From assembly GCF_041886205.1 (NCBI RefSeq), contig NZ_CP169029.1: a stretch of DNA of 64,000 bases; one strand, written 5' to 3'. A model generated the notes under the pieces. It was given only the letters and a program-made list of their open reading frames with translations, was not told where the DNA came from and did not search any database. Of the stretch, positions 4,579 to 22,373 are shown one piece after another. A program made the translations under genes and the position numbers. This DNA is from Escherichia coli (GTDB lineage Bacteria; Pseudomonadota; Gammaproteobacteria; Enterobacterales; Enterobacteriaceae). Every line of letters starts with the position of its first letter. Within the stretch, counting starts at the first letter, position 1.

Positions 4579-4649
4579 TTTCTGCAGTTGTTATTAAAGG
4601 ATACCCTTGTGCGAGGGTATCCTTTCCGACTGATAACAAACGCTACATT

Positions 4650-4708
4650 GCCTAATGCGCTGCGCTTATCTGGCCTATATAATCCCTGCAATATATTGAA
4701 TTTATTGT
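4650..4708. repeat. REP-like palindromic element with conserved extension (second copy at about 40085-40142)
   Basis: gcgctgcgcttatctggcctat...cctgcaatatattgaatttattg closely matches gcgctacgcttatcaggcctac...cctgcaatttattgaatttgttg downstream of ridA. Confidence 0.6.
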
Positions 4709-5286
4709 TTTTGTGGCCCAGCCGACATGAACGGCCACTCAAGAAACTCAACAGCAACCGTTGATGTCAGCCAGACCCCGTTTTCCGCTTGCCAGAAAGG
4801 GATGCCTCGTTTCGCCATTTCCTGTGCTTTGACGGTTAAGATAACCGGCGATCCGTGTCTTGCTCCCACTTTGCGTGCCGTTGCTTCATCAGCAGAGAGA
4901 TGTACGTAATGACGCTCCCCTGCAATCAGCCCCTGTTTTTTTATCTCGTCAAGGAAACGGCTTGCCGTACCGTGGTAGAGAAACTGTGGCGGTGTTTTTT
5001 CGGCAAAGGAAATGGCGACCTGCGAAGTCGAATGCCCCTGAACCGCGCGGATGCACCTACCATCACTGGAATAACTAAAACGCTTTTTATCGCTGGTGGC
5101 AACCACAGTATCCAGCAATGCACGGGTTAACCGCTTGCCCGCTTTTTGGGCACAGAGTATAAGCTTATCGATATCCGCCCATCCTTCACGGTCAAGTACG
5201 ATACCAATCGCCTCCGGTTTGTGTCGGAGGACAAAACTTAAAAACTTGCTCGTATCCGCCAGCTCTTTTTCGTTGTACTTTGCCAT
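4702..5286 (-). CDS. kptA: RNA 2'-phosphotransferase KptA (Tpt1 family)
   Basis: Translation [28 protein letters not shown]...[16 protein letters not shown] matches the KptA/Tpt1 family; start chosen at internal Met of the 228-aa ORF. Confidence 0.85.
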
Positions 5287-5523
5287 CTCGTTTTCGTCCC
5301 TGGATTTTCTGTTTTTATTTACTGATGTCATTGTCACTTGGTTTATGAATTTTCTGCAACTCAATCCTGCGCAGAGCCTTTTCCACACAGCGTAATTTTT
5401 CCGCTATGCAAAAAACGCATAGCCAGAAACATACTTGCATTTTCCCCATACCCACATGGCTGATAAGGTTTTTCCGCTCCAGGAATTTTCCTGGCTCAAG
5501 CAACACACAAACACAAAAAAACA

Positions 5524-6219
5524 ATGGGGATTGTTATGACACAACAAGGGGATGCTGTAGCCGGGGAGCTGGCGACAGAAAAAGTGGGCATTAAAGGGTA
5601 TCTGGCTTTTTTTCTCACCATAATCTTTTTTTCCGGTGTTTTTTCCGGGACAGACAGTTGGTGGCGCGTTTTTGATTTTTCCGTTCTGAACGGATCGTTT
5701 GGGCAACTGCCTGGTGCGAATGGAGCCACCACCTCATTTCGCGGGGCGGGTGGCGCGGGGGCTAAAGATGGCTTTCTCTTTGCGCTGGAGCTGGCACCGT
5801 CAGTCATTCTCTCTCTGGGGATTATTTCAATTACCGATGGTCTTGGTGGATTACGCGCCGCGCAGCAGTTAATGACACCTGTGCTAAAACCGTTGTTGGG
5901 CATTCCAGGGATCTGCTCGCTGGCGCTGATCGCTAACCTGCAAAACACGGATGCCGCCGCCGGTATGACCAAAGAGCTGGCGCAGGAAGGTGAAATTACC
6001 GAACGCGATAAAGTGATTTTCGCCGCATATCAAACCAGCGGTAGCGCCATCATCACCAACTACTTCTCTTCCGGCGTCGCGGTGTTTGCCTTTCTGGGCA
6101 CGTCCGTAATCGTACCTTTAGCCGTCATCCTGGTGTTTAAATTTGTCGGAGCCAACATTTTGCGCGTCTGGCTTAACTTCGAAGAACGTCGCAACCCAAC
6201 GCAAGGAGCGCAAGCATGA
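5524..6219 (+). CDS. yjiH: Inner membrane protein YjiH (SpmA-like nucleoside-recognition-domain protein)
   Basis: Hydrophobic 231-aa ORF; position and order yjiH-yjiG-iadA as I recall for K-12; 4-bp overlap with the next gene. Confidence 0.75.
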   Translation: MGIVMTQQGDAVAGELATEKVGIKGYLAFFLTIIFFSGVFSGTDSWWRVFDFSVLNGSFGQLPGANGATTSFRGAGGAGAKDGFLFALELAPSVILSLGIISITDGLGGLRAAQQLMTPVLKPLLGIPGICSLALIANLQNTDAAAGMTKELAQEGEITERDKVIFAAYQTSGSAIITNYFSSGVAVFAFLGTSVIVPLAVILVFKFVGANILRVWLNFEERRNPTQGAQA

Positions 6220-6677
6220 CAACTCAGGTCCGCAAAAATGTCATGGATATGTTTATCGATGGTGCGCGCCGTGGCTTTACTATCGCCACGACCAACCTGC
6301 TGCCAAACGTGGTGATGGCGTTTGTCATCATTCAGGCGCTGAAAATTACCGGCCTGCTCGACTGGGTGGGGCATATCTGTGAACCCGTAATGGCGCTGTG
6401 GGGATTACCCGGTGAAGCGGCAACCGTCCTTTTAGCCGCATTAATGAGTATGGGCGGCGCAGTCGGTGTTGCCGCCAGTCTGGCGACCGCCGGCGCATTA
6501 ACCGGTCACGATGTCACCGTTTTACTGCCCGCGATGTATTTAATGGGCAACCCGGTGCAAAATGTCGGTCGCTGCCTGGGGACAGCCGAAGTGAATGCCA
6601 AATATTACCCGCATATCATTACGGTCTGCGTGATTAACGCATTGCTGTCGATCTGGGTTATGCAGCTTATTGTTTAA
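6216..6677 (+). CDS. yjiG: Inner membrane protein YjiG (SpmB-like)
   Basis: 153-aa membrane ORF translationally coupled to yjiH and followed by iadA. Confidence 0.75.
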   Translation: MTTQVRKNVMDMFIDGARRGFTIATTNLLPNVVMAFVIIQALKITGLLDWVGHICEPVMALWGLPGEAATVLLAALMSMGGAVGVAASLATAGALTGHDVTVLLPAMYLMGNPVQNVGRCLGTAEVNAKYYPHIITVCVINALLSIWVMQLIV

Positions 6678-6689
6678 CAAGGAGTTACC

Positions 6690-7862
6690 ATGATTGATTA
6701 TACCGCAGCCGGTTTTACCCTGCTGCAGGGAGCGCATTTGTATGCGCCGGAAGATCGGGGAATTTGCGATGTCCTCGTCGCTAACGGCAAAATTATCGCC
6801 GTTGCCAGCAATATCCCTTCTGACATTGTACCGGACTGCACGGTTGTCGATCTCAGCGGGCAGATCCTCTGTCCTGGTTTTATTGATCAACACGTCCATT
6901 TGATTGGTGGTGGCGGTGAAGCAGGTCCCACGACGCGCACGCCAGAAGTGGCGCTAAGTCGCCTGACGGAAGCGGGCGTCACGTCAGTGGTTGGTCTGCT
7001 GGGCACCGACTCTATCTCTCGCCACCCGGAATCCCTGCTCGCCAAGACCCGTGCGCTCAATGAAGAAGGCATCAGCGCCTGGATGCTGACCGGCGCTTAT
7101 CATGTCCCTTCCCGCACCATTACAGGTTCCGTGGAAAAAGACGTGGCGATTATCGATCGTGTGATTGGCGTGAAATGCGCCATCTCTGATCACCGTTCTG
7201 CCGCACCGGACGTTTATCACCTGGCTAATATGGCGGCGGAATCCCGCGTTGGCGGTTTGCTCGGCGGTAAACCTGGCGTCACCGTGTTCCACATGGGCGA
7301 CAGCAAAAAGGCGTTACAGCCTGTCTATGACCTGCTGGAAAACTGCGATGTGCCGATCAGCAAGTTGCTGCCGACCCACGTTAACCGCAACGTTCCGTTG
7401 TTTGAGCAGGCGCTGGAGTTCGCGCGCAAAGGCGGCACTATCGATATCACCAGCAGCATTGACGAACCGGTCGCCCCTGCCGAAGGTATTGCGCGCGCCG
7501 TTCAGGCGGGTATTCCGCTGGCACGCGTCACCCTCAGCTCCGACGGCAACGGTAGCCAGCCGTTCTTCGATGACGAAGGGAATTTAACCCATATCGGTGT
7601 TGCCGGTTTTGAAACGTTGCTGGAAACCGTGCAGGTGCTGGTCAAAGACTATGATTTCAGTATCAGCGATGCCCTGCGCCCGCTCACCAGTAGCGTAGCC
7701 GGTTTCCTTAACCTGACCGGGAAAGGCGAAATTCTGCCAGGCAATGATGCTGACTTGCTGGTCATGACGCCAGAACTGCGCATTGAGCAGGTATACGCTC
7801 GCGGCAAACTGATGGTCAAAGACGGCAAAGCCTGCGTGAAAGGAACGTTTGAAACGGCTTAA
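6690..7862 (+). CDS. iadA: Isoaspartyl dipeptidase (amidohydrolase superfamily)
   Basis: 390 aa; metal-binding HxH motif near N-terminus (FIDQHVHLIGGGGE); RBS aggag upstream; K-12 synteny. Confidence 0.85.
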   Translation: MIDYTAAGFTLLQGAHLYAPEDRGICDVLVANGKIIAVASNIPSDIVPDCTVVDLSGQILCPGFIDQHVHLIGGGGEAGPTTRTPEVALSRLTEAGVTSVVGLLGTDSISRHPESLLAKTRALNEEGISAWMLTGAYHVPSRTITGSVEKDVAIIDRVIGVKCAISDHRSAAPDVYHLANMAAESRVGGLLGGKPGVTVFHMGDSKKALQPVYDLLENCDVPISKLLPTHVNRNVPLFEQALEFARKGGTIDITSSIDEPVAPAEGIARAVQAGIPLARVTLSSDGNGSQPFFDDEGNLTHIGVAGFETLLETVQVLVKDYDFSISDALRPLTSSVAGFLNLTGKGEILPGNDADLLVMTPELRIEQVYARGKLMVKDGKACVKGTFETA

Positions 7863-7926
7863 ACGGTTGTCAGCCGCCCGAATGGACGTAGAATGCCCGC
7901 AAGGGCGGCTGACAGAGTAAAACGTA

Positions 7927-8763
7927 ATGGATGACTGTGGTGCGATTTTGCATAATATTGAAACCAAATGGCTTTATGATTTTCTGACCCTGGAAAAATG
8001 CCGCAATTTTTCCCAGGCGGCAGTCAGTCGCAACGTCTCGCAACCGGCATTCAGCCGCCGCATCCGTGCGCTGGAACAGGCGATTGGTGTTGAATTGTTT
8101 AACCGCCAGGTAACGCCGCTGCAACTCTCAGAACAAGGGAAAATCTTCCATTCGCAGATCCGCCATCTGTTGCAACAGTTAGAGAGCAATCTGGCAGAGC
8201 TGCGTGGCGGCAGCGATTACGCGCAACGAAAAATCAAGATAGCCGCTGCACACTCTCTTTCCCTCGGGCTGTTACCGTCCATTATCAGCCAGATGCCGCC
8301 GCTCTTTACCTGGGCAATTGAAGCTATTGATGTCGATGAAGCGGTCGATAAACTGCGTGAAGGGCAAAGTGACTGTATTTTTTCCTTTCACGACGAAGAT
8401 TTGCTGGAAGCGCCGTTTGACCACATTCGCTTATTTGAATCTCAATTGTTCCCTGTCTGCGCCAGTGACGAACACGGAGAAGCACTTTTTAACCTCGCGC
8501 AGCCACACTTTCCGTTACTGAATTACAGCCGCAACTCCTACATGGGGCGATTGATTAATCGCACCCTGACGCGCCACAGTGAGTTAAGTTTCAGCACCTT
8601 TTTTGTCTCTTCGATGAGCGAGCTTTTAAAGCAGGTTGCCCTCGACGGCTGTGGGATTGCCTGGCTGCCGGAGTACGCCATCCAACAAGAAATTCGCAGC
8701 GGGAAGCTCGTTGTACTGAATCGGGACGAACTGGTGATCCCGATTCTGGCCTATGCATACTGA
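7927..8763 (+). CDS. hypT: LysR-family regulator HypT (YjiE), apparently truncated by an in-frame TGA; 24 further sense codons continue to a second stop at 8836-8838
   Basis: N-terminal HTH typical of LysR regulators; ORF ends ...ILAYAY then TGA, followed in frame by [24 protein letters not shown] and a stop. Confidence 0.75.
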   Translation: MDDCGAILHNIETKWLYDFLTLEKCRNFSQAAVSRNVSQPAFSRRIRALEQAIGVELFNRQVTPLQLSEQGKIFHSQIRHLLQQLESNLAELRGGSDYAQRKIKIAAAHSLSLGLLPSIISQMPPLFTWAIEAIDVDEAVDKLREGQSDCIFSFHDEDLLEAPFDHIRLFESQLFPVCASDEHGEALFNLAQPHFPLLNYSRNSYMGRLINRTLTRHSELSFSTFFVSSMSELLKQVALDGCGIAWLPEYAIQQEIRSGKLVVLNRDELVIPILAYAY

Positions 8764-8830
8764 ATGAATACCCGCATGAATCCAGTTGCCGAACGCTTCT
8801 GGCGTGAACTGCGCGAGCTGGAGATTGTAC

Positions 8831-9223
8831 TTAGCTGACATTCTCCAGCGTCGCACTACGCCAACCGCCATTATCCCAGACCAGATCAAACGTTAGCGGT
8901 TCATCGTCGTGGTACAGCATTATCTCAAGGCTGATCGCCAGCGTGTGACTGTACGCTTCTTTCAGATTGACCTGCAACGCCGCAATCCGTGGCTCATGAA
9001 ATAACAGTGCAGAACGCAGCTGACGGCAATACCAGCTCTGGAGATGTTTGTCGCTCTGGTTATGCACTTGCCACTCGGGCATGCCTGAAACAAGTAATGA
9101 CGGTAATGCCGAAAGAGGAGAATTAAAAAGAGTGAGGAGATCGCTGCATACCGATTTACGCAGCAATGACGTTTTATTGCCTGAAATTTTAGGTAAAACA
9201 GCCTGAAGTGATTGGCGCATCAT
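8831..9223 (-). CDS. iraD: Anti-adapter protein IraD (YjiD)
   Basis: About 130-aa ORF convergent with hypT; sequence [11 protein letters not shown]... as recalled for IraD; K-12 synteny. Confidence 0.75.
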
Positions 9224-9894
9224 TTTGCGCACTCCTGACGTTTAGCAACATATGCGGCTTGCCCTGAACACCGGGCACCACTGTATTGATGCTCATTTTC
9301 CATAGCCATTCCCTTTTGTTCATTACATCCATGTCAGTCTGAGACAGGCCTGAATCCTGTCAGCAAAGTATAAAACCTTACTTGCCTATGAATATCTACT
9401 GACTTTTCAGGAAAAAAGTCATGATTTGATAAAAATCATCAAACTCAAAAAAAAACCGCTAGTATATTCTGAATATTCCGAATAGTTACGTAGATGAAAA
9501 TACTTGTCACCGCCGCTACTTAATTCCGGTTGGAAATTATTTATTTCCGCATAATCATCTATGTATTATTTGAAACAATTAGTTTGTAAATAATATAAAT
9601 TGATAACATATCAAATACATCAAAAATACCATTCACAGGCATTATTAATATAGACCTCAATATAGCAACATCAAATTCCAATTAGTAATAAGATATGCTT
9701 TTAAATTGCATGCAAATAATTTTAAATGAGCGTTTTTTGATACTTTAGAGTGTTTCCTACCATTTAATATCACTGTGTAGAGTTGATATCACTACAACAG
9801 AAACATGCATGTCATTTGTTTACTTCTCTTTTACTACAGAAAAATTTATCTATTTTTCTAAACATCAGTGAAATACTCATAAAAGGTAACTATT

Positions 9895-10725
9895 ATGTCT
9901 ATGCCATTAAGCAATGCCGCTAATAACCAATTCTATATAAATAATCACTTCCTTCATCATCCAAAAGTCGACAATGAGTTAACACGTAAATATGAACGTG
10001 CACGCCTGGATACGGAAAATATCTATCTTCTGCCTCTTACTCGTGGCAATAACCATAATTACGATGGAAAAAGCGTTGTCGAAATTAGAAAACTTGATAT
10101 TAGTAAAGAGTCCTGGCCATTTAATTATGTGACAGAAACATGCAGAGAATCCGATGGTATTACAACAACAGGTCGTATGCTCTATCGAAACTTGCGAATT
10201 ACCTCAGCTTTAGACGAAATATATGGTGGTATATGTAAAAAGGCGCATGCTGCCACAGAGTTAGCAGAAGGATTACGGCTAAATTTATTTATGAAGAGCC
10301 CTTTCGATCCTGTTGAGGACTATACAGTTCATGAAATAACATTAGGCCCTGGTTGCAATGTTCCTGGTTATGCCGGAACCACGATAGGATATATTTCAAC
10401 CCTTCCAGCTTCTCAGGCAAAAAGATGGACCAATGAGCAGCCAAGGATTGATATCTATATTGATCAGATAATGACGGTAACAGGGGTAGCAAATTCTTCC
10501 GGATTCGCCCTTGCCGTATTACTTAATGCTAATATTGAGTTGGGTAATGACCCAATAATTGGTATAGAAGCCTATCCCGGTACCGCGGAGATCCATGCAA
10601 AAATGGGATATAAAGTTATCCCGGGTGATGAAAATGCACCACTCAAACGTATGACTCTGCAACCGTCATCTCTTCCAGAACTGTTTGAATTAAAAAATGG
10701 TGAATGGAATTATATTGGTAAATAA
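9895..10725 (+). CDS. yjiC: Uncharacterized protein YjiC, low-GC gene
   Basis: 276-aa ORF with AT-rich codon usage, preceded by a 660-bp very AT-rich intergenic region; position matches K-12 yjiC. Confidence 0.7.
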   Translation: MSMPLSNAANNQFYINNHFLHHPKVDNELTRKYERARLDTENIYLLPLTRGNNHNYDGKSVVEIRKLDISKESWPFNYVTETCRESDGITTTGRMLYRNLRITSALDEIYGGICKKAHAATELAEGLRLNLFMKSPFDPVEDYTVHEITLGPGCNVPGYAGTTIGYISTLPASQAKRWTNEQPRIDIYIDQIMTVTGVANSSGFALAVLLNANIELGNDPIIGIEAYPGTAEIHAKMGYKVIPGDENAPLKRMTLQPSSLPELFELKNGEWNYIGK

Positions 10726-10865
10726 CTACCAGGAAGAATGAGTACTAACATTCAGGTTATACAGATAGCTAAACAATACCCTGCAATTTACAAAGTAATA
10801 CTCATTGCGACTTCTTAATTTAAGAAAGCGCAAGGAACGTTTACCCTTGCGCTTATTATAATAAG

Positions 10866-11639
10866 TCAGGCGTCGACTTTATCCAGCGGCCATGAATCAA
10901 ACAGATAGCCATCAAAATAAATATCGTCAACGTTCGAGAATTCCAGCAGACGTTGCTTAACGTTTTCCAGATGCTGCCACATTGCCAGCTTCGCCGCTCG
11001 GGCATCTTTTTTGATTAACGCGGCGAGGATCTGTTTGTGATCGCCCAACCACTCTTTGCGATACAGGCTGTCATCCAGATGGCTGTGCAACTGGATCCAC
11101 ATTGGATTGTTTTCCCGCCACTGCCAGGACTGACGGAACAGCTCCACCAGCATGCTGTTATGCGTTGCTTCGGCAATAGCGAGATGGAACTGCATGTCAC
11201 CGCTTTCGCTGCTGCCCGGCGCACTGGAAGCCAGTTCACGCTCTTCCAGTTGCAATGCCTGACGCATTTTGACGATATCTTCGCGGGTAGCCTGCAGGGC
11301 GGCAAACTCGGCGATGTTGCTCTCAAGAAGCTGTCGCGCCTGCAACAGCTCAAAAGGACCCGCATCATTGCAAACGTTGGCATCCGGACTGTCTGTGTTG
11401 TGGCTGCCTGAGCTATCAAGAACATAGATACCGGCACCCCGGCGCACTTCCACCAGCCCTTTGATCTCCAGCATGATCAGCGCTTCACGTACCACCGTCC
11501 GCGTGACATCAAGCATTTCTGCAATTTCACGCTCCGGCGGCAGCCGTTCGCCAGGATTGTACGGCGTCTTTATGATCAGATCGCGGATCATCGCCCCGAC
11601 TTCCTGGTAAGGTCTTTGCGCAGAGGTGGCAGATTTCAT
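10866..11639 (-). CDS. uxuR: GntR/FadR-family transcriptional repressor UxuR
   Basis: 257 aa; N-terminal GntR-type HTH (RLPPEREIAEMLDVTRTVVREAL); adjacent to uxuAB. Confidence 0.9.
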   Translation of the reverse strand: MKSATSAQRPYQEVGAMIRDLIIKTPYNPGERLPPEREIAEMLDVTRTVVREALIMLEIKGLVEVRRGAGIYVLDSSGSHNTDSPDANVCNDAGPFELLQARQLLESNIAEFAALQATREDIVKMRQALQLEERELASSAPGSSESGDMQFHLAIAEATHNSMLVELFRQSWQWRENNPMWIQLHSHLDDSLYRKEWLGDHKQILAALIKKDARAAKLAMWQHLENVKQRLLEFSNVDDIYFDGYLFDSWPLDKVDA

Positions 11640-11674
11640 GGTGTTGTGTCCGTTAGGTGCGGTTAATCAAATTT

Positions 11675-11708
11675 TGCCGGATGCGGCGTGAACGCCTTAT
11701 CCGGCCTA
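11675..11708. repeat. REP (repetitive extragenic palindromic) element
   Basis: gccggatgcggcgtgaacgccttatccggcctac, the canonical E. coli REP sequence, between uxuR and uxuB. Confidence 0.8.
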
Positions 11709-11852
11709 CAACGGGCAATTTTACGGCCCCCGTTAATCTCAAACTATACCATTAGCACTGGAAGTTGGCACGTACAGGTGGGCAAAAAAACGAAAACTGG
11801 TCAACCAAATATCAGTTTGATTGACCAGTAAGTCTGTAGGGTAATCAGTTAG

Positions 11853-13313
11853 TTACAGCGCAGCCACACACTCGCGCGCACCGCGTTCGCACAGCTGCTG
11901 ATATGCCGCCGTCACCGCGCCAACAAAGTCCGCATTTTGCGGCAGATCATCGGCAAAAATACCGCTCAGGCCCAGCAACGCTTTCACGCGGTCTGCGCCC
12001 TGATTCTGCGCGTTGATCTTCTGGAACTCCGCCAGCATCGGGTCAACTACGTCAATGGCATTACCCTGCTCATCCACGCCCTGGGTGTAGCGCATCCAGC
12101 CAGCCACGCCCAGCGCCAGGTGACGCCAGCTGCCGCCGTTTTGCAGGTGCAGACGCACCGGATCCAGCAGACGCTGCGGTAACTTCTGGCTGCCGTCCAT
12201 CGCAATCTGCCAGGTACGGTGACGCAGAGACGGGTTGCTGAAACGCTCGATCAGCAGCGTCGCATAGGCGTTCAGGTCCGTACCTTCCGGCATCGACAGC
12301 GTTGGCGCTTGTTCCTGCATCATCAGGGCAAAGGCCGCTTTGCGATAATCCGGGTTAGTCATGGTGTCGGCAATAGTTTCATAGCCGCCGAGGTAACCGA
12401 GGTATGCCAGGAAAGAGTGGCTGCCGTTCAGCATACGCAGCTTCATCATTTCGAACGGCACAACGTCTGCAACGAACTGTGCGCCCACTTTATCCCAGTC
12501 CGGGCGACCATTAACGAAGTTATCTTCAATCACCCACTGACGGAACGGTTCGCAGGCAATGGCGCACGGGTCGTAAACACCCAGCTGGTCAGCAATTTCC
12601 TGTAAGGTTTCTGGCGTCGCCGCCGGAACGATGCGGTCAACCATGGTGCACGGGAAGGTGACGTTCTCTTCAATCCATGCCGCCAGCTGCGGATCGCGTG
12701 CCTGAGCCAGCCCAAGAACGGCAACCTTCGCCACATGACCGTTTTCTCGCACGTTGTCGCAGGACATCACCGTAAACGCTTTCAACCTTTTTTCACGACG
12801 CAGGCGCAACGCTTCTACGATGTAACCAATCGCGGACTTCGGCGCAGTCGGGTTTTCCAGATCGTGCTTGATCAGCGGGTTATTGAGATCCAGTTGACCG
12901 CTTGCCGCATCAGCGCAGTAGCCTTTTTCCGTGACCGTTAGAGAGACAATCGCCGTTTGCGGACGCGCCATCGCGTTGAGAATACCTTCGCAGCCATCGA
13001 TTTCCGGATGCAGCGCTTCTTTCATTGAACCGATAATTTTCAGCTCGGTGCTTTCTGCGCCTTTTTCCGCCACGGTGTACAGCAGTTGCTGTTTTTTCAG
13101 GTTTTCGATCAGCACGCGGTCGTTGCCTGGCATCAGGTTAACTTCGCAGATACCCCAGTCGCTGTCGGTGCTTTCCAGCAGGTGATGGGTATACAGCGCC
13201 TGGTGCGCGCGGTGAAACGCCCCGCAACCGAGATGCACAATGCGTGATTCCAGACGAGAATGATCCCATGACGGGCGGGCAACCGGCAGATTGCTGTCAA
13301 CAATAGTAGTCAT
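11853..13313 (-). CDS. uxuB: D-mannonate oxidoreductase (fructuronate reductase)
   Basis: 486 aa, mannitol-dehydrogenase-family protein with N-terminal Rossmann motif (VHLGCGAFHRAH); uxuAB operon context. Confidence 0.9.
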   Translation of the reverse strand: MTTIVDSNLPVARPSWDHSRLESRIVHLGCGAFHRAHQALYTHHLLESTDSDWGICEVNLMPGNDRVLIENLKKQQLLYTVAEKGAESTELKIIGSMKEALHPEIDGCEGILNAMARPQTAIVSLTVTEKGYCADAASGQLDLNNPLIKHDLENPTAPKSAIGYIVEALRLRREKRLKAFTVMSCDNVRENGHVAKVAVLGLAQARDPQLAAWIEENVTFPCTMVDRIVPAATPETLQEIADQLGVYDPCAIACEPFRQWVIEDNFVNGRPDWDKVGAQFVADVVPFEMMKLRMLNGSHSFLAYLGYLGGYETIADTMTNPDYRKAAFALMMQEQAPTLSMPEGTDLNAYATLLIERFSNPSLRHRTWQIAMDGSQKLPQRLLDPVRLHLQNGGSWRHLALGVAGWMRYTQGVDEQGNAIDVVDPMLAEFQKINAQNQGADRVKALLGLSGIFADDLPQNADFVGAVTAAYQQLCERGARECVAAL

Positions 13314-13393
13314 CGTAAACTCCAGAATCCGTCTTCAGAGAGTGACGGCAAGGAAGAAGGAACCGGCACGGCGCGCAGCCATGCCGGTGGATA

Positions 13394-14578
13394 TTAACGG
13401 CTAAAGAAAGCGCGCTGGATCGCCAGTTCGACACCGCGAACTTCGGCCAGGCCTTTCAGACGACCAATTGCGGAGTAACCTGGGTTGGTTTTCTTCTTCA
13501 GGTCGTCCAGCATCTGATGACCGTGGTCCGGACGCATCGGGATCAGGTCTTCTTTGCCTTCCGCTTTACGACGGTGTTCTTCTTCAACAATCGCTTTCAC
13601 CACTTCGTACATATCAACGTCACCGTTCAGGTGCGCCGCTTCGTGGAAGGTTTTGGGGTTATCTTCACGCATGGTGGAGCGCAGATGGGTGAAGTAAATG
13701 CGCGGACCAAACTGCTTGATCATATCAACCAGATCGTTGTCAGCACGCACGCCGTAGGAACCGGTGCACATGGTGAAACCGTTCGCCATGCTGTTTACGG
13801 TATCAACCATCCACTGCATATCTTCAATGGTGGAAACAATGCGCGGCAGGCCGAGGATCGGGCGCGGCGGATCGTCCGGGTGAACAGCCATACGCACGCC
13901 AACTTCTTCGGCAACCGGAATAATCGCTTTCAGGAAGACCGCAAAGTTTTCGCGCAGTTTGGCTTTGTCGATATCTTTGTACAGCTCCAGGTGTTTACGG
14001 AACTGGTCGAGGGTGTAGCCTTCTTCCGCGCCCGGAAGACCAGCAATGATGTTACGGGTCAGACGCGCTTTGTCTTCGTCGCTCATAGTGGCGAAGCGAA
14101 CAGCAGCCTGAGCAATTTCTTCTTCGGCGTAATCCGCTTCCGCGCCTGGACGTTTCAGGATATGCATTTCGAATGCAGCGAATTCGATCTGGTCGAAGCG
14201 CAGCGCTTTGGAGCCGTCTGGCAGCACGTATTCGAGGTCAGTACGGGTCCAGTCGAGCACCGGCATGAAGTTGTAGCACACGGTGCGAATGCCGCACTGC
14301 GCCAGGTTGCGCAGAGTCTGCTGATAGTTAGCGATCCACTGCTCATAGTTGCCAGTGTGGGTTTTGATATCTTCGTGAATTGGTACGCTTTCTACGACAG
14401 ACCACACCAGGCCTGCGTCTTCAACGATCGCCTTGCGTTTGAGGATCTCTTCTACGGACCATACTTCGCCGTTCGGGATATGGTGCAGCGCGGTAACCAC
14501 GCCAGTTGCGCCCGCCTGACGGACATCAGCTAAAGAAACCGGATCGTTTGGGCCGTACCAGCGCCAGGTCTGTTCCAT
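13394..14578 (-). CDS. uxuA: Mannonate dehydratase
   Basis: Translation from [23 protein letters not shown]... (394 aa) matches UxuA; start chosen at internal Met of the 406-aa ORF. Confidence 0.9.
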
Positions 14579-14740
14579 GATTTTTCCTCTTTCACATAGT
14601 GGGTTCCACAGCAAAGAGACGCGGAACCCTGGAGTTGTTTAGGTATCCGGATGAACAACCAGACCGCAGCCGTGGCGTTGCATCGGATGAGATGGCGTAT
14701 AAGTTCTACCTTTTGGTAAGACATGTCAACCCGAATTCTG

Positions 14741-14864
14741 AAATTGGTTAACCACATCACAAGAAATCAACTCTATTGCTGGTTGATGCAAATGACAACA
14801 AAGGAGAAGCGGCGGTTAGTAATCGGGGGATGTGACATTCATCGCAATAATGGTTGACCAATTT
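14741..14864. promoter_or_regulatory. uxuAB control region with two UxuR/ExuR-operator-like palindromes
   Basis: aaattggttaaccacat (14741-14757) and tggttgaccaattt (14851-14864), near-palindromes around TGGTTAACCA, upstream of uxuA. Confidence 0.55.
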
Positions 14865-14972
14865 ACATAACGTGTCGCCCAAAATAACAATGGATTAACC
14901 TACTCCCCCATTGCATAAGTTGTGACCGACACAACAAAACTGATGTTGTTGCAAAGATTGCTATTTAGTTTT

Positions 14973-14987
14973 GGTATAAAAGGTATA
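14973..14987. promoter_or_regulatory. NanR-operator-like GGTATA direct repeats upstream of nanM
   Basis: ggtataaaaggtata about 50 bp upstream of the nanM start; NanR is known to bind GGTATA repeats. Confidence 0.45.
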
Positions 14988-15036
14988 CAGGCACATGGTG
15001 CGACATTTGAATTCCAGCGATCAGGAGTAATTCACA

Positions 15037-16143
15037 ATGAATAAAACAATAACGGCGCTTGCTATCATGATGGCTTCATTTGCCGCAAACGCGTCTGTAT
15101 TACCGGAAACTCCTGTGCCATTTAAAAGTGGTACCGGAGCAATTGATAACGACACTGTCTACATTGGTTTAGGTAGCACAGGTACGGCATGGTACAAGCT
15201 GGATACACAGGCCAAAGATAAAAAATGGACAGCGTTAGCTGCATTCCCTGGCGGACCAAGAGATCAAGCAACCTCGGCATTTATTGATGGCAATCTGTAT
15301 GTGTTTGGCGGCATTGGCAAAAACAGCGAGGGCTTGACTCAGGTATTTAATGACGTACACAAATACAACCCCAAAACCAATAGTTGGGTTAAATTGATGT
15401 CGCACGCACCGATGGGCATGGCGGGTCATGTAACTTTTGTACACAACGGCAAGGCTTATGTTACTGGCGGTGTTAACCAGAATATCTTCAATGGCTATTT
15501 TGAAGATCTCAACGAGGCTGGAAAAGATTCAACCGCTGTAGATAAAATCAACGCTCACTATTTTGACAAAAAAGCAGAAGATTATTTCTTCAATAAGTTT
15601 CTGTTGTCTTTTGATCCCTCAACACAGCAATGGAGTTACGCTGGCGAATCCCCCTGGTACGGAACGGCTGGTGCGGCGGTTGTGAATAAAGGTGATAAAG
15701 CCTGGCTTATTAATGGCGAAGCCAAACCAGGATTGCGAACGGATGCCGTATTTGAACTTGATTTCACCGGTAATAATTTAAAATGGAATAAGCTTGCTCC
15801 CGTCTCATCACCAGATGGCGTCGCTGGCGGTTTTGCGGGGATAAGCAATGATTCTCTTATATTTGCCGGAGGGGCCGGATTCAAAGGTTCACGAGAAAAT
15901 TACCAGAACGGTAAGAACTATGCGCATGAAGGCCTGAAAAAATCATATAGCGCTGATGTTCATCTTTGGCATAACGGGAAATGGGATAAATCGGGCGAAT
16001 TGTCGCAAGGTCGGGCCTACGGAGTATCATTGCCCTGGAATAATAGTTTATTAATTATTGGCGGTGAAACTGCAGGCGGCAAAGCGGTGACGGATTCAGT
16101 TTTGATCTCTGTGAAGGATAATAAAGTCACAGTACAAAACTAA
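15037..16143 (+). CDS. nanM: N-acetylneuraminate epimerase (Kelch-repeat sialic acid mutarotase), signal peptide present
   Basis: 368 aa with N-terminal signal peptide (MNKTITALAIMMASFAANA) and repeated Kelch-like GG motifs; RBS aggag. Confidence 0.85.
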   Translation: MNKTITALAIMMASFAANASVLPETPVPFKSGTGAIDNDTVYIGLGSTGTAWYKLDTQAKDKKWTALAAFPGGPRDQATSAFIDGNLYVFGGIGKNSEGLTQVFNDVHKYNPKTNSWVKLMSHAPMGMAGHVTFVHNGKAYVTGGVNQNIFNGYFEDLNEAGKDSTAVDKINAHYFDKKAEDYFFNKFLLSFDPSTQQWSYAGESPWYGTAGAAVVNKGDKAWLINGEAKPGLRTDAVFELDFTGNNLKWNKLAPVSSPDGVAGGFAGISNDSLIFAGGAGFKGSRENYQNGKNYAHEGLKKSYSADVHLWHNGKWDKSGELSQGRAYGVSLPWNNSLLIIGGETAGGKAVTDSVLISVKDNKVTVQN

Positions 16144-16207
16144 CGCTTCAGGGCCCCAGTAAAGGGGCCCTGCTATCAATTTATCATATCAATTACGCGA
16201 AAATTAT

Positions 16208-17188
16208 ATGGACGCAATAATATCGCCCGATTATTACTATGTTCTTACCGTTGCTGGTCAGTCTAATGCCATGGCGTATGGCGAAGGACTGCCATTACCG
16301 GACAGGGAAGATGCGCCTCATCCCAGAATTAAACAATTAGCAAGATTTGCGCATACGCATCCCGGAGGCCCGTCATGTCACTTTAACGACATTATTCCAC
16401 TGACTCACTGCCCACACGATGTTCAGGATATGCAGGGTTATCACCATCCTCTGGCAACGAATCATCAAACACAGTACGGCACCGTTGGCCAGGCACTGCA
16501 TATTGCACGGAAATTACTGCCCTTCATTCCTGATAATGCAGGGGTTCTCATCGTTCCATGTTGTCGTGGCGGCTCGGCTTTTATCGCAGGCAGCGAAGGG
16601 ACATATTCAGAACGGCACGGAGCCAGCCATGATGCTTGTCGTTGGGGAACGGATACTCCGCTATACCAGGATTTAGTCAGCAGAACGCGAGCCGCACTGG
16701 CAAAAAATCCGCAGAACAAATTCCTCGGCGTATGCTGGATGCAAGGCGAATTTGACTTAATGACCTGTGACTACTCGTCACACCCTCAACACTTTAATCA
16801 TATGGTTGAAGCCTTTCGTAGGGATCTAAAACAATACCATTCTCAGCTTAATAAAATTACTGACGCGCCGTGGTTTTGCGGCGATACCACCTGGTACTGG
16901 AAAGAAAATTTCCCTCATGCGTATGAAGCTATTTATGGCAATTATCAAAATAATGTTTTAGCTAATATTATTTTCGTCGACTTCCAGCAACAAGGTGAAA
17001 GAGGACTGACGAACGCGCCTGATGAAGACCCGGACGATTTAATCATGGGATATTACGGTTCAGCGTACCGGTCACCGGAGAACTGGACGACGGCACTGCG
17101 AAGCAGTCATTTCAGCGCGGCAGCCCGTCGGGGGATTATTTCTGACAGGTTTGTAGAAGCAATTTTGCAGTTTTGGCGCGAAAGGTGA
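16208..17188 (+). CDS. nanS: 9-O-acetyl-N-acetylneuraminate esterase (SGNH/DUF303 family)
   Basis: 326 aa beginning ...YVLTVAGQSNAMAYGEG (GQSN catalytic-serine motif); directly downstream of nanM. Confidence 0.8.
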   Translation: MDAIISPDYYYVLTVAGQSNAMAYGEGLPLPDREDAPHPRIKQLARFAHTHPGGPSCHFNDIIPLTHCPHDVQDMQGYHHPLATNHQTQYGTVGQALHIARKLLPFIPDNAGVLIVPCCRGGSAFIAGSEGTYSERHGASHDACRWGTDTPLYQDLVSRTRAALAKNPQNKFLGVCWMQGEFDLMTCDYSSHPQHFNHMVEAFRRDLKQYHSQLNKITDAPWFCGDTTWYWKENFPHAYEAIYGNYQNNVLANIIFVDFQQQGERGLTNAPDEDPDDLIMGYYGSAYRSPENWTTALRSSHFSAAARRGIISDRFVEAILQFWRER

Positions 17189-17195
17189 GCGTTCA

Positions 17196-17846
17196 TTAAT
17201 TTGATTTATTCGCATCCATTAGCGCTTTTAACTGCTCCGGCGTAAACGGTGGTTTGCGTCGGTGCAGCATCGCATGGCAATTAGGGCACACAGGAAGCAA
17301 ATCATTAACTGGATCCAGCTGGTAATCCTCTTTAATGGCTGAAAGCGGCACCAGGTGATGCACATGGATAAAGCCTTCAGCGATATCACCATAGATCTTC
17401 ACCAGATCAACGCCGCATACGTTGCATTGGCATCCATGATGTTCGACCGCTTTATCTCGGGCCTTTTTATCGCGTTCATAGCGGTTTACTGTCACCTTTA
17501 TCGCCGCACCTTCAACGTAGGTCCCCTGCGACGGCAGCTCATCCGGGAACAGAACGTCGGCTATGGGAGCCGCAGCGGCTTTATCCTGATGAATATGAAA
17601 TCCCTGCTCTATGAGTAGCTTGACACATTTAGATTTTATTCCGCCGGTGAAATCCGCAGGGGTAAATTGCGTCCCCGTCATCAATGTCGCTGCGATGCCA
17701 GCAATCGCCTTCGAGGGGTAACGTCGGCCATGATATTCAATTTCATACAACCGTGCAGGCTGGAACTGATGAGTTTCTCCCGCATCCCATAAATGAATAG
17801 CTTCGATGATATACCGCCGCGGAAGATGATCGGGGAGTTTATTCAT
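17196..17846 (-). CDS. HNH endonuclease, McrA-like (candidate modification-dependent restriction/defence nuclease)
   Basis: 216 aa; C-terminal HNH/zinc-finger signature CQCNVCG...HVHHLVPLS...NDLLPVCPNCH; N-terminal roughly 120-aa domain of unknown type; convergent with nanS, next to IS1. Confidence 0.7.
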   Translation of the reverse strand: MNKLPDHLPRRYIIEAIHLWDAGETHQFQPARLYEIEYHGRRYPSKAIAGIAATLMTGTQFTPADFTGGIKSKCVKLLIEQGFHIHQDKAAAAPIADVLFPDELPSQGTYVEGAAIKVTVNRYERDKKARDKAVEHHGCQCNVCGVDLVKIYGDIAEGFIHVHHLVPLSAIKEDYQLDPVNDLLPVCPNCHAMLHRRKPPFTPEQLKALMDANKSN

Positions 17847-17992
17847 AGAGAATGTCCTTATACGTTCTCAGAACAAGCAGCAAAAAAACAAATGAGATCA
17901 AAGTAATATATCTTCACTTGCAGGCTTGAACAGCAGAAAATTTGCGAGCATGATCGCAATTATTTCACTGCCAGGGAGGTAATGACTCCAAC

Positions 17993-18496
17993 TTATTGAT
18001 AGTGTTTTATGTTCAGATAATGCCCGATGACTTTGTCATGCAGCTCCACCGATTTTGAGAACGACAGCGACTTCCGTCCCAGCCGTGCCAGGTGCTGTCT
18101 CAGATTCAGGTTATGCCGCTCAATTCGCTGCGTATATCGCTTGCTGATTACGTGCAGCTTTCCCTTCAGGCGGGATTCATACAGCGGCCAGCCATCCGTC
18201 ATCCATATCACCACGTCAAAGGGTGACAGCAGGCTCATAAGACGCCCCAGCGTCGCCATAGTGCGTTCACCGAATACGTGCGCAACAACCGTCTTCCGGA
18301 GCCTGTCATACGCGTAAAACAGCCAGCGCTGGCGCGATTTAGCCCCGACATAGCCCCACTGTTCGTCCATTTCCGCGCAGACGATGACGTCACTGCCCGG
18401 CTGTATGCGCGAGGTTACCGACTGCGGCCTGAGTTTTTTAAATGGCGGAAAATCGTGTTGAGGCCAACGCCCATAATGCGGGCGGTTGCCCGGCAT
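17993..18496 (-). CDS. insB: IS1 transposase InsB reading frame (expressed as InsAB' by -1 frameshift)
   Basis: 167-aa [19 protein letters not shown]...DGWPLYE... overlapping the insA 3-prime end in the -1 frame, as in IS1. Confidence 0.9.
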
Positions 18497-18690
18497 CCAA
18501 CGCCATTCATGGCCATATCAATGATTTTCTGGTGCGTACCGGGTTGAGAAGCGGTGTAAGTGAACTGCAGTTGCCATGTTTTACGGCAGTGAGAGCAGAG
18601 ATAGCGCTGATGTCCGGCGGTGCTTTTGCCGTTACGCACCACCCCGTCAGTAGCTGAACAGGAGGGACAGCTGATAGAAACAGAAGCCAC
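18415..18690 (-). CDS. insA: IS1 protein InsA
   Basis: 91-aa [46 protein letters not shown]..., the IS1 InsA zinc-finger protein. Confidence 0.95.
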
Positions 18691-18745
18691 TGGAGCACCT
18701 CAAAAACACCATCATACACTAAATCAGTAAGTTGGCAGCATCACC

Positions 18746-19057
18746 CAGCAAACGAACCTGGATGATTTGCCGGATAAAGCCAGCATCATTGACGCGTTTT
18801 TTACCTTTGCTCAACGCGAACAGCAACGTGAAGCAGAAGCCTTGATCAAAGAAGAAAATCTCAATGAAGAGGCGGCGAAACGCTATATTCGCACGTCTTT
18901 AAAACGCGAATACGCCACCGAAAATGGCACGGAATTAAACGAGACATTGCCAAAACTCAGTCCGTTAAATCCGCAATATAAGACGAAAAAACAGACGGTT
19001 TTCCAGAAGATCGTCGCGTTTATTGAGAAGTTTAAAGGTGTAGGCGGGCAGATATAA
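18746..19057 (+). pseudogene. 3-prime remnant of a larger gene truncated at its 5-prime end by IS1; encoded tail is charged and helical
   Basis: Reading frame is open from the IS1 boundary with no start context (first listed codon is TTG); peptide ...[37 protein letters not shown]...[15 protein letters not shown]. Confidence 0.6.
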
Positions 19058-19240
19058 TGTATTAATCCGAACCTGATCTGGCAGATAGCTGTCAGATCAG
19101 GACTGAGCTAATACAAATTAATGTCGAACCGAAAATACCAACGCCTGTACCAACATTTTTCGTTTGCGATGGGTTGGAATTGGTTAGCCCTGAGAGAGTT
19201 AAAATAGCGAGAAAGATAGGTAACTAACGGATTTCAGACA

Positions 19241-19268
19241 CAAAAAAAGCCGCTCTTGAGCGGCTCGA
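19241..19268 (-). terminator. Rho-independent terminator of leuX
   Basis: On the minus strand gagccgctcaagagcggc hairpin followed by a T-run immediately 3-prime of the tRNA. Confidence 0.7.
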
Positions 19269-19281
19269 TTTGCATACGGTG

Positions 19282-19366
19282 TGGTGCCGAAGGCCGGACT
19301 CGAACCGGCACGTATTTCTACGGTTGATTTTGAATCAACTGCGTCTACCGATTTCGCCACTTCGGC
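19282..19366 (-). tRNA. leuX: tRNA-Leu (CAA), leuX
   Basis: Reverse complement reads GCCGAAGTGGCGAAATCGGTAGACGCAGTTGATTCAAAATCAACCGTAGAAATACGTGCCGGTTCGAGTCCGGCCTTCGGCACCA with CAA anticodon loop and encoded CCA end. Confidence 0.95.
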
Positions 19367-19561
19367 ACTGAAGAGGTATGCGGAAAACGTTGTGGATTAT
19401 ACCTGTCGCACGCCACCATGCAAGCGCCAGCTTGCTCGCACCTCGCTAAGTGCTGAAATTTTCAGCATTGCATACAGCGATGTGTAACCTTTGTCACACT
19501 CCAGGCACCCCGCCCTGCCATGCTCTACACTTCCCAGACCACACCAGAGAAGGACCAAAAA

Positions 19562-20581
19562 ATGTCGATGATAAGAAGCTATGCCGCAAAAGAAGCGGGC
19601 GGCGAACTGGAAGTTTATGAGTACGATCCCGGTGAGCTGAAGCCACAAGATATTGAAGTGCAGGTGGATTACTGCGGGATCTGCCATTCCGATCTGTCGA
19701 TGATCGATAACGAATGGGGATTTTCACAATATCCGCTGGTTGCCGGGCATGAGGTGATTGGGCGCGTGGTGGCACTCGGGAGCGCCGCGCAGGATAAAGG
19801 TTTGCAGGTCGGTCAGCGTGTCGGGATTGGCTGGACGGCGCGTAGCTGTGGTCACTGCGACGCCTGTATTAGCGGTAATCAGATCAACTGCGAGCAAGGT
19901 GCGGTGCCAACAATTATGAATCGCGGCGGTTTTGCCGAGAAGTTGCGTGCGGACTGGCAATGGGTGATTCCACTGCCAGAAAATATTGATATCGAGTCCG
20001 CCGGGCCGCTGTTGTGCGGCGGTATCACGGTCTTTAAACCACTGTTGATGCACCATATCACTGCTACCAGCCGCGTTGGGGTAATTGGTATTGGCGGGCT
20101 GGGGCATATCGCTATAAAACTTCTGCACGCAATGGGATGCGAGGTGACAGCCTTTAGTTCGAATCCGGCGAAAGAGCAGGAAGTGCTGGCGATGGGTGCC
20201 GATAAAGTGGTGAATAGCCGCGATCCGCAGGCACTCAAAGCACTGGCGGGGCAGTTTGATCTCATTATCAATACTGTGAACGTCAGCCTCGACTGGCAGC
20301 CTTATTTTGAGGCGCTGACCTATGGCGGTAATTTCCATACGGTCGGTGCGGTTCTCACGCCGCTGTCTGTTCCGGCCTTTACGTTAATTGCGGGCGATCG
20401 CAGCGTCTCTGGTTCTGCTACCGGCACGCCTTATGAGCTGCGTAAGCTGATGCGTTTTGCCGCCCGCAGCAAGGTTGCGCCGACTACCGAACTGTTCCCG
20501 ATGTCGAAAATTAACGACGCCATTCAGCATGTACGCGATGGTAAAGCGCGCTACCGAGTGGTCCTGAAAGCCGACTTCTGA
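19562..20581 (+). CDS. ahr: NADPH-dependent aldehyde reductase Ahr (YjgB), zinc-dependent alcohol dehydrogenase family
   Basis: Translation from [21 protein letters not shown]...; Zn-ADH motifs (GICHSD, GHEVIG) and Rossmann GIGGLGH. Confidence 0.9.
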
Positions 20582-20710
20582 TCCCTTTGCCGGGTGCCTG
20601 TCGCCCGGCACTTAAATCTCTTTGGAAGGCATCTCGCAATCTGCTTAATTTAGCGGTGAAGAGTGCATAGCCGTTGCCTATACTCCAGGCAGGAAACTGG
20701 AGGAAATCTC

Positions 20711-22213
20711 ATGAGTGAACCCCTGTTAATTGCCCGCACGCCGGACACAGAACTGTTTTTACTGCCGGGAATGGCTAACCGTCACGGGCTGATTACTGGC
20801 GCAACGGGGACGGGTAAAACTGTCACGCTGCAAAAACTGGCGGAGTCTCTATCGGAAATCGGTGTTCCGGTGTTTATGGCCGATGTGAAAGGCGATCTGA
20901 CCGGCGTCGCGCAGGCAGGAACGGCGTCGGAAAAACTGCTCGCAAGGCTTAAAAATATCGGCGTCAATGACTGGCAACCGCATGCCAATCCGGTGGTGGT
21001 GTGGGATATCTTTGGCGAGAAAGGCCATCCGGTGCGGGCGACGGTTTCGGATCTGGGGCCGCTGTTGCTGGCGCGGCTGTTGAATCTCAACGATGTGCAA
21101 TCTGGCGTGCTGAATATCATCTTCCGCATTGCTGACGATCAGGGGCTGTTACTGCTCGACTTTAAAGATTTGCGGGCGATTACCCAGTACATCGGCGATA
21201 ACGCCAAATCTTTCCAGAATCAGTACGGTAATATCAGTAGCGCATCGGTTGGTGCCATCCAGCGCGGATTACTGTCGCTGGAACAGCAAGGCGCAGCACA
21301 CTTCTTTGGTGAGCCGATGCTGGATATCAAAGACTGGATGCGCACCGATGCCAACGGTAAAGGCGTTATCAATATCCTCAGCGCCGAGAAACTTTATCAG
21401 ATGCCGAAACTGTACGCCGCCAGCCTGCTGTGGATGCTTTCAGAGTTGTATGAACAATTGCCGGAAGCGGGCGATCTGGAGAAACCAAAACTGGTGTTTT
21501 TCTTCGACGAGGCACATCTGCTGTTTAACGATGCACCGCAGGTACTGCTGGATAAGATTGAGCAGGTGATAAGGCTTATTCGCTCAAAAGGCGTGGGCGT
21601 CTGGTTCGTTTCGCAAAACCCGTCTGATATTCCGGATAATGTGCTCGGCCAGCTCGGTAATCGCGTTCAGCACGCTTTGCGGGCTTTTACGCCCAAAGAT
21701 CAGAAAGCAGTGAAGGCAGCGGCGCAAACCATGCGGGCCAATCCGGCATTTGATACCGAAAAGGCAATCCAGGAACTGGGGACCGGCGAGGCGTTAATCT
21801 CGTTTCTCGATGCAAAAGGAAGTCCTTCTGTGGTGGAACGGGCGATGGTGATTGCGCCTTGTTCGCGGATGGGACCGGTGACGGAAGATGAGCGCAATGG
21901 CTTGATTAATCACTCTCCGGTGTATGGCAAGTACGAGGATGACGTGGACCGGGAATCCGCCTATGAGATGTTGCAAAAAGGCTTTCAGGCCAGTACCGAG
22001 CAGCAAAATAATCCTCCCGCGAAAGGGAAAGAGGTGGCGGTGGATGACGGTATTCTTGGTGGATTGAAGGATATTTTGTTTGGCACTACCGGACCACGCG
22101 GCGGGAAGAAAGATGGTGTGGTGCAAACAATGGCGAAAAGCGCCGCCCGCCAGGTGACGAATCAGATTGTACGCGGGATGTTGGGGAGTTTGCTGGGGGG
22201 GAGAAGAAGGTAA
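20711..22213 (+). CDS. yjgR: P-loop NTPase YjgR (DUF853 family)
   Basis: Translation from [11 protein letters not shown]...; Walker A GATGTGKT; about 500 aa. Confidence 0.8.
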
Positions 22214-22373
22214 GTCAGGCGCGATTTGTCTTTGCCTGATGCGACGCTGGCGCGTCTTATCATGCCTACACCACTGCAACATATTGGATTTTCATGATTT
22301 TTCAGGCATGAACGAAGCACACTTTGCTAACAATAATAAAGGGAGCTTTAGCTCCCTTTATTCGTTCATCAGG

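Follow-up and report, generated by a model that had tools for sequence, protein, structure and literature searches.

Does the 312-base open frame that lies near the leuX tRNA gene of this Escherichia coli strain represent a gene in its own right or a leftover of a larger one and, in the latter case, what has become of the rest? The frame was analyzed together with its surroundings in a 64-kb stretch of DNA (64,000 nucleotides, referred to here as the window) and compared with the corresponding loci of related complete genomes. We consider it highly probable (roughly 90%) that this frame represents the last 103 codons of a type IC hsdR gene, left behind by an IS1-associated deletion of a defense island. 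The features of the locus are listed in Table 1.

Table 1. Features of the leuX-proximal region, in window coordinates unless another source is named.
Feature	Position	Strand	Remarks
HNH endonuclease gene	17196–17846	-	intact, 216 aa; conserved left neighbor of the variable island
Left deletion junction	17847–17977	.	intergenic DNA 5' to the HNH gene; identical to intact genomes up to base 17977
IS1	17978–18745	-	complete, 768 bp; terminal repeats, insA, insB', A6C frameshift site
insB'	17993–18496	-	intact, 167 aa; ORF in IS1
insA	18415–18690	-	intact, 91 aa; ORF in IS1
IS1–hsdR junction, shared base	18716–18805; 8001–9080 of L006 (E. coli 2017-03-3CC)		same orientation
hsdR 3' remnant	18746–19057	+	type IC (EcoR124-family); codons 936–1038 + stop; probable pseudogene
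hsdR–leuX intergenic DNA	19058–19281	.	native; contiguous with the remnant, 100% identical to WAT
leuX terminator	19266–19247	-	terminator-like hairpin, then T run
leuX, tRNA-Leu(CAA)	19282–19366	-	intact (ARAGORN); right-hand hotspot anchor

Identity of the frame beside leuX

Counted from the IS1 boundary at 18746, the frame comprises 103 codons and closes at a TAA codon (19055–19057); when traced in the 5' direction, it stays open up to the next stop (TAA, 18728–18730), which is located within IS1. The only in-frame starts are TTG codons (at 18767, 18842 and 18947), no ATG or GTG starts being present in this frame between 18746 and 19057. An earlier, sequence-only reading had described the frame as open from the IS1 boundary and devoid of start context, which proved exact, coordinates included.

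The encoded tail matches the terminal part (model positions 169–260 of 260, E = 1.9e-20) of the Pfam family EcoR124_C (PF12008, described as 'Type I restriction and modification enzyme, subunit R C terminal'), as well as the PADLOC model REase_I (E = 3e-29) and the HsdR subunits of EcoR124I/II in PDB (2W00, 4BE7, 5J3N; 1,038 residues; E about 3e-59). It corresponds to residues 936–1038 of the crystallised EcoR124I HsdR, with 99 of 103 residues identical (96%). These matches confirm the suspected resemblance to the C-terminal tail of Type I HsdR, the best of them being to HsdR and not to an unrelated housekeeping gene. A comparison with the full leuX islands of other strains, which had been proposed as a check, showed that the frame corresponds to the 3' end of a gene, hsdR, that is intact there, the agreement with the leuX-linked HsdR of E. 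coli 6EVA being complete (103/103, residues 936–1038); the ORF is, therefore, an incomplete hsdR end and not a complete short gene. At the nucleotide level, all 535 of 535 bases from position 18747 on, including the intergenic DNA up to leuX, are the same as in strain WAT at the 3' end of its intact, leuX-linked hsdR (3,117 bp). The window from 18746 to 20600 is colinear, without rearrangement, with the succession of hsdR 3' end, leuX and ahr in five genomes, and the gap between the end of the remnant and leuX is approximately 225 bp.

An HsdR subunit begins with a nuclease domain, continues with a pair of RecA-like motor domains and ends in a helical region, which is thought to touch the methyltransferase (PMC5248579). 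In the intact leuX-linked HsdR of the relatives (1,038 aa), Pfam recognizes HSDR_N, SWI2_SNF2/ResIII, T1R_D3-like and EcoR124_C regions; the EcoR124I/II HsdR structures (2W00, 4BE7, 5J3N) share both this length and the same four regions. Whereas EcoR124I/II HsdR is a full enzyme, the window codes for its last 10% only, with no hsdM or hsdS nearby, and what is retained amounts to just the final third of the C-terminal region, or about the last tenth of the gene. Indeed, a tblastn search of the 64-kb window with the full 1,038-aa HsdR matched only residues 931–1038, revealing neither the nuclease nor either of the RecA-like motor domains, and adjacent hsdM or hsdS genes were likewise not detected within the window by tblastn. 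EcoR124I is plasmid-borne, whereas the hsdR allele of the window is chromosomal and adjoins leuX.

No disabling mutations are found inside the remnant. No consensus promoter match is present upstream of it on the plus strand, and the sole nearby match is the promoter of IS1, which is located on the opposite strand, inward-facing and directed away from the remnant. An equivalent hsdR fragment found elsewhere, in the ykgJ lineage described below, is labeled a pseudogene in RefSeq. Because the nuclease and motor domains, an ATG or GTG start and an upstream promoter match are all missing, we infer that the remnant is a pseudogene, probably neither transcribed nor translated. Thus, segment 18746–19057 is best read as a dead terminal piece of a chromosomal, type IC gene for a Type I restriction enzyme (hsdR), that is, as a piece of a type IC HsdR rather than a functional member of this group, which, with the N-terminal nuclease and motor domains missing, is incapable of restricting DNA. 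With respect to annotation, this ORF deserves an hsdR pseudogene label.

The IS1 element and the missing island

The IS1 element adjoining the remnant is the only copy in the 64-kb window. It is bounded by the terminal repeats GGTAATGACTCC... and ...GGCAGCATCACC (the IRL, ...GGCAGCATCACC, ending at 18745), carries the A6C frameshift site (motif TAAAAAAC), and is 97.4–97.5% identical to annotated IS1 copies of other genomes. Insertion of IS1 usually creates a target duplication of 8–9 bp (PMC12428005). No such duplication surrounds the window copy, its 9-bp flanks being TGCCAGGGA on the left vs. CAGCAAACG on the right. Duplication-less IS elements at deletions have been explained by adjacent deletion or by IS–IS recombination (PMC11708052), and the missing duplication points to one of these processes and does not argue against the identity of the element as IS1.

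The left flank (17847–17977) is identical (131/131) to ET201, 6EVA and EC38, all of which then run on with TATCAATGGCTTCC...; this break point is located 5 bp upstream of the position of the SBD-HNH gene ATG in intact strains, and the right one falls between hsdR codons 935 and 936. Window segments 15022–17977 and 18746–20600 are colinear with EC38 (2276–5231 and 14000–15854 of its locus, respectively), WAT, 1303, ET201 and 6EVA, and the alignments end exactly at the IS1 ends. Since the alignments break at the ends of IS1 and no 8–9 bp duplication is present, the arrangement is attributed to an IS1-associated deletion and not to a simple insertion. The left junction (HNH intergenic DNA joined to IS1) is absent from all of the 5,426 complete E. 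coli genomes searched and has no matches in genome_contigs; the right junction has no matches in genome_contigs, metagenome_contigs or plasmids.

The stretch of the intact loci that is unmatched in the window measures 8,660 bp in WAT, 8,755 bp in 6EVA and 8,768 bp in EC38 (all three with AbiE-type islands), 9,943 bp in ET201 (with an extra IS3 in hsdS) and 11,490 bp in 1303 (with a McrBC-type island). From the HNH gene to leuX, the intact islands comprise SBD-HNH, AbiEi/AbiEii or McrBC, DUF4942, hsdM, hsdS and hsdR. The gene SBD-HNH, for a sulfur-binding-domain HNH protein ('phosphorothioated DNA-binding restriction endonuclease'), is intact in 1303 and is represented by a 150-bp stub in WAT, EC38, ET201 and 6EVA. 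The leuX-locus gene order in the relatives is hsdM-hsdS-hsdR, with hsdM and hsdS directly upstream of hsdR (in 6EVA, ET201, WAT, EC38 and 1303); this set is intact in every inspected same-flank complete genome without an island IS1 (6EVA, WAT, EC38, 1303), and in ET201 all three genes are present with hsdS split by IS3. A tblastn search of the 64-kb window with all island proteins revealed no other island genes, the sole match being HsdR 931–1038.

IS1 stands here in place of the whole island stretch, i.e., of approximately 9 kb of neighboring defense genes and most of hsdR. The proposal made from the sequence alone, that a restriction system once present in the leuX island has been destroyed by IS1, is supported by the intact hsdM-hsdS-hsdR sets of 6EVA, WAT, EC38 and 1303 and can be refined, the comparison supporting a multi-gene loss of ~9 kb rather than a mere interruption of hsdR. 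The loss, of at least about 8.7 kb, takes in hsdM, hsdS and a second defense system, which was AbiE or McrBC according to the type of island that the ancestor had.

The HNH gene to the left of IS1 is spared. Its product matches the Pfam HNH family just above the cut-off (E = 9.7e-5) and, weakly and with both halves, the PADLOC model mREase_IV (E about 6e-6; 5.7e-6 N-terminal). The N-terminal part (residues 24–87) weakly matches ScoMcrA (PDB 5ZMM, residues 29–93; E = 2.7e-5), and the HNH part of the 216-aa protein matches McrA (PDB 6GHC). The homologues in ET201, 6EVA and EC38 are of equal length and differ by 5–7 aa, and the flank with this gene is carried by about 1,148 complete genomes. The protein may be a small Type IV (McrA-like) restriction enzyme. 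It had also been singled out as the sole surviving defense candidate, which holds for the nanS–leuX stretch, as judged by tblastn with the island proteins against the 64-kb window; it is reasonable to regard this gene as the only, still putative, defense candidate left between nanS and leuX.

Origin of the deletion

In the most probable scenario, the ancestor would have carried a small defense island, flanked by the conserved HNH gene on one side and leuX on the other, in the order SBD-HNH gene or stub, AbiEi/AbiEii or McrBC, DUF4942, hsdM, hsdS and hsdR, with hsdR ending ~225 bp from leuX. IS1 would first have landed at either end point, and an intramolecular replicative 'adjacent' deletion, starting at one end of the element, would then have reached as far as the second end point, removing everything from 5 bp before the SBD-HNH start to hsdR codon 935 and leaving a single IS1 copy where the island had been. 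For replicative deletions by IS1, PMC12428005 cites Turlan and Chandler (1995). As in IS1 adjacent deletions, the window contains a complete IS1 at the site of the deletion with non-duplicated flanks, which natively lie ~9 kb apart; we infer the window event, including the order of its steps and the island variant of the ancestor, from sequence, and recombination between two IS1 copies could produce it as well.

No precursor with a simple IS1 insertion and target duplication at either end point was found among the 5,426 complete E. coli genomes. A synthetic query, modeled on hsdR with one IS1 at this site and a 9-bp duplication around it, returned spurious or joined-piece matches only. An IS1 copy in strain 3045, considered as a possible precursor, turned out to be a separate insertion, which lies 6 bp short of the stop codon and has a 9-bp duplication of its own. 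The lack of disabling mutations in the remnant and the occurrence of this allele in 0 of the 5,426 complete genomes fit a recent deletion.

Recombination between two IS1 copies is the most serious alternative. Here, copies of the same orientation, one upstream of SBD-HNH and the other at hsdR codon 935/936, would have recombined homologously, deleting the interval together with one IS1 and, likewise, leaving one copy whose 9-bp flanks are unrelated to each other. Such recombination is among the standard explanations given for IS copies that lack a target duplication (PMC11708052); moreover, strain DAX4 has two IS1 copies at once inside this island, and in another lineage, too, IS1 has joined hsdR at this end point, as would be expected of a preferred primary insertion site. 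Nevertheless, this route requires two prior insertions instead of one, neither of which is found as a single insertion in the 5,426 complete E. coli genomes, and we view it as possible but distinctly the less probable of the two. The final sequence would be alike in both cases, and insertion followed by adjacent deletion is favored because it involves one event fewer.

The other lineage in question comprises seven complete E. coli genomes in which an IS1 of the same orientation abuts the identical hsdR base at a different locus (ykgJ/ecp, not leuX). Its hsdR allele differs from the window remnant at 30 of 312 nt, and an IS5 end follows directly after the 312-bp tail. Inheritance of the junction in common by the two lineages was considered and is unlikely, because the window tail is the WAT allele (100%) from its second base; the first base matches every allele compared, and the first site that distinguishes WAT from the ykgJ allele lies 24 nt in. 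The shared junction would reflect either an IS1 hot spot or coincidence, a target preference of IS1 for this hsdR site being the simplest reading; the other IS1/hsdR junctions inspected are at different hsdR positions. That the tail has been retained in a non-accidental way, owing to an IS1 hot spot at codon 935/936 or to selection for the HsdR fragment, seems improbable. If it were true, the hot spot in type IC hsdR would constitute a recurrent off-switch for restriction, and a selected fragment, which is rated less likely than the hot spot, might hinder the assembly of incoming EcoR124-type enzymes.

Unlike the deletion favored above, an IS1-mediated inversion or translocation would have split hsdR, with the rest of the island surviving elsewhere near another IS1. 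Many E. coli genomes do have IS1 just downstream of this hsdR followed by unrelated DNA, and the sequence in view is 64 kb of the source genome. Yet an inversion or translocation predicts foreign DNA on one side, whereas here both neighbors of IS1, the left one in particular, are edges native to this one island and keep their original orientation, as predicted by a deletion, and the window holds no other island genes; a rearrangement is, therefore, very improbable. Least credible of all is a functional small gene of 96–103 codons that would start at TTG 18767 and encode a C-terminal assembly fragment of HsdR, a notion to which the intact frame with no mutations of its own, the presumed contact of the C-terminal helical region with the methyltransferase (PMC5248579) and the preservation of a tail of identical length (312 bp) in a second lineage lend some appeal, but which is at odds with the missing ATG/GTG start and plus-strand upstream promoter (the IS1 promoter facing away), the coverage of only a part of the EcoR124_C domain (169–260 of 260 model positions), the lack of a cognate hsdM or hsdS within the window and the RefSeq assignment of the equivalent fragment as a pseudogene, and is not needed to account for the missing decay, which a recent deletion explains equally well.

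The leuX hotspot and its surroundings

As summarized in a review (PMC12707154) of the work of Hochhauser et al., leuX anchors E. coli defense hotspot #37, the most occupied of 41; according to the same review, type IC restriction-modification systems occur at this hotspot, and a tRNA-directed integrase is located at one anchor. The window locus shares with hotspot #37 the leuX anchor, the type IC cargo class and contents that vary by strain (AbiE vs. McrBC). In contrast to the reviewed hotspot with its integrase, both an integrase and a repeated leuX end are lacking from the window locus and the related genomes inspected. Between nanS and leuX, no integrase is annotated in these genomes or found in the window, the 3' end of leuX is not repeated anywhere in the window (with up to 3 mismatches allowed), and leuX itself shows 0 mismatches to ET201, 6EVA, EC38 and 1303. 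Because an integrase and a repeated leuX end are lacking, the locus behaves as a flank-anchored variable defense hotspot rather than a classical integrated leuX island. In the window, hotspot #37 is nearly empty, containing the HNH gene, IS1 and a gene stub.

Another IS1-bounded deletion of the same island is found in E. coli DAX4 (L007, 5602–8768), where mcrB', IS1 and an 855-bp 'hsdR tail follow each other: one IS1 is located inside mcrC, the second between truncated mcrB and the hsdR tail, and hsdM and hsdS are missing. The DAX4 and window alleles have in common the island, the IS family and the orientation of IS1 relative to the tail, and in both of them hsdM, hsdS and the 5' portion of hsdR are gone. 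They differ in both break points, the left end in DAX4 lying within mcrB, and in the extra IS1 in mcrC, and the two deletions are independent events. In many E. coli genomes, an intact type IC hsdR is followed after ~65–150 bp by IS1 (L011, L013, L014 and L015, about 4380–5230), and in place of leuX the element adjoins unrelated DNA with pgaD, a porin gene or further IS elements, an arrangement suggestive of inversions or translocations mediated by IS1 at the locus. Taken together, the DAX4 deletion and the genomes with a downstream IS1 indicate that IS1-driven erosion and rearrangement are recurrent here.

The kind of event described is already known and routine at this locus, and its product is an ordinary IS-made pseudogene in a well-known variable region. 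As a single case of an IS eroding a defense island at the busiest known E. coli defense hotspot, it carries little weight; the independent IS1 deletions (in the window and in DAX4), along with the recombined patch described below, contribute one data point for fast gain and loss at hotspot #37. In practical terms, the strain should be scored as having neither the leuX-linked type IC system nor the AbiE/McrBC module of its relatives.

The backbone of the window is near-identical to that of ET201, with which segment 1–17977 aligns without gaps at 99.61% identity (70 mismatches). These mismatches are unevenly distributed (9 in 1–15500 and 61 in 15538–17742, followed by 46 in 18748–20563 and 0 in 20564–22225), so that ET201 is 99.94% identical upstream and 2–3% divergent over 15.5–20.6 kb of the window. 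Because the mismatches to ET201 concentrate at 15538–20563, the leuX hotspot with ~2 kb of each flank is regarded as a recombined patch of other ancestry in a near-clonal backbone. No complete E. coli genome is more than 98.2% identical over either of the 2.5-kb flanks; the ancestral island may accordingly have been of the AbiE or of the McrBC type. The deletion could have been imported ready-made with this patch.

Several features of the neighboring genes are of separate interest. nanS (sialate O-acetylesterase, 16208–17188) is an intact 326-aa ORF in the window, ET201 and 6EVA, and is given as a truncated pseudogene in RefSeq for WAT, 1303, EC38 and DAX4. Within 14615–15036, uxuA is directly followed by nanM, with gntP, the whole fim operon (fimB–fimH) and nanC absent, a junction present in 2 of the 5,426 complete E. 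coli genomes, namely ET201 (from a frog) and 6EVA (from a human). hypT (7927–8838) has a premature stop at 8761 (R279*, CGA to TGA vs. ET201), so that this hypochlorite-response regulator is shortened by 25 residues at its end. Finally, a large inverse autotransporter adhesin gene (58–4578), truncated at the left window end, lies between yjiJ and kptA; in ET201, this gene is iatD (5.2 kb).
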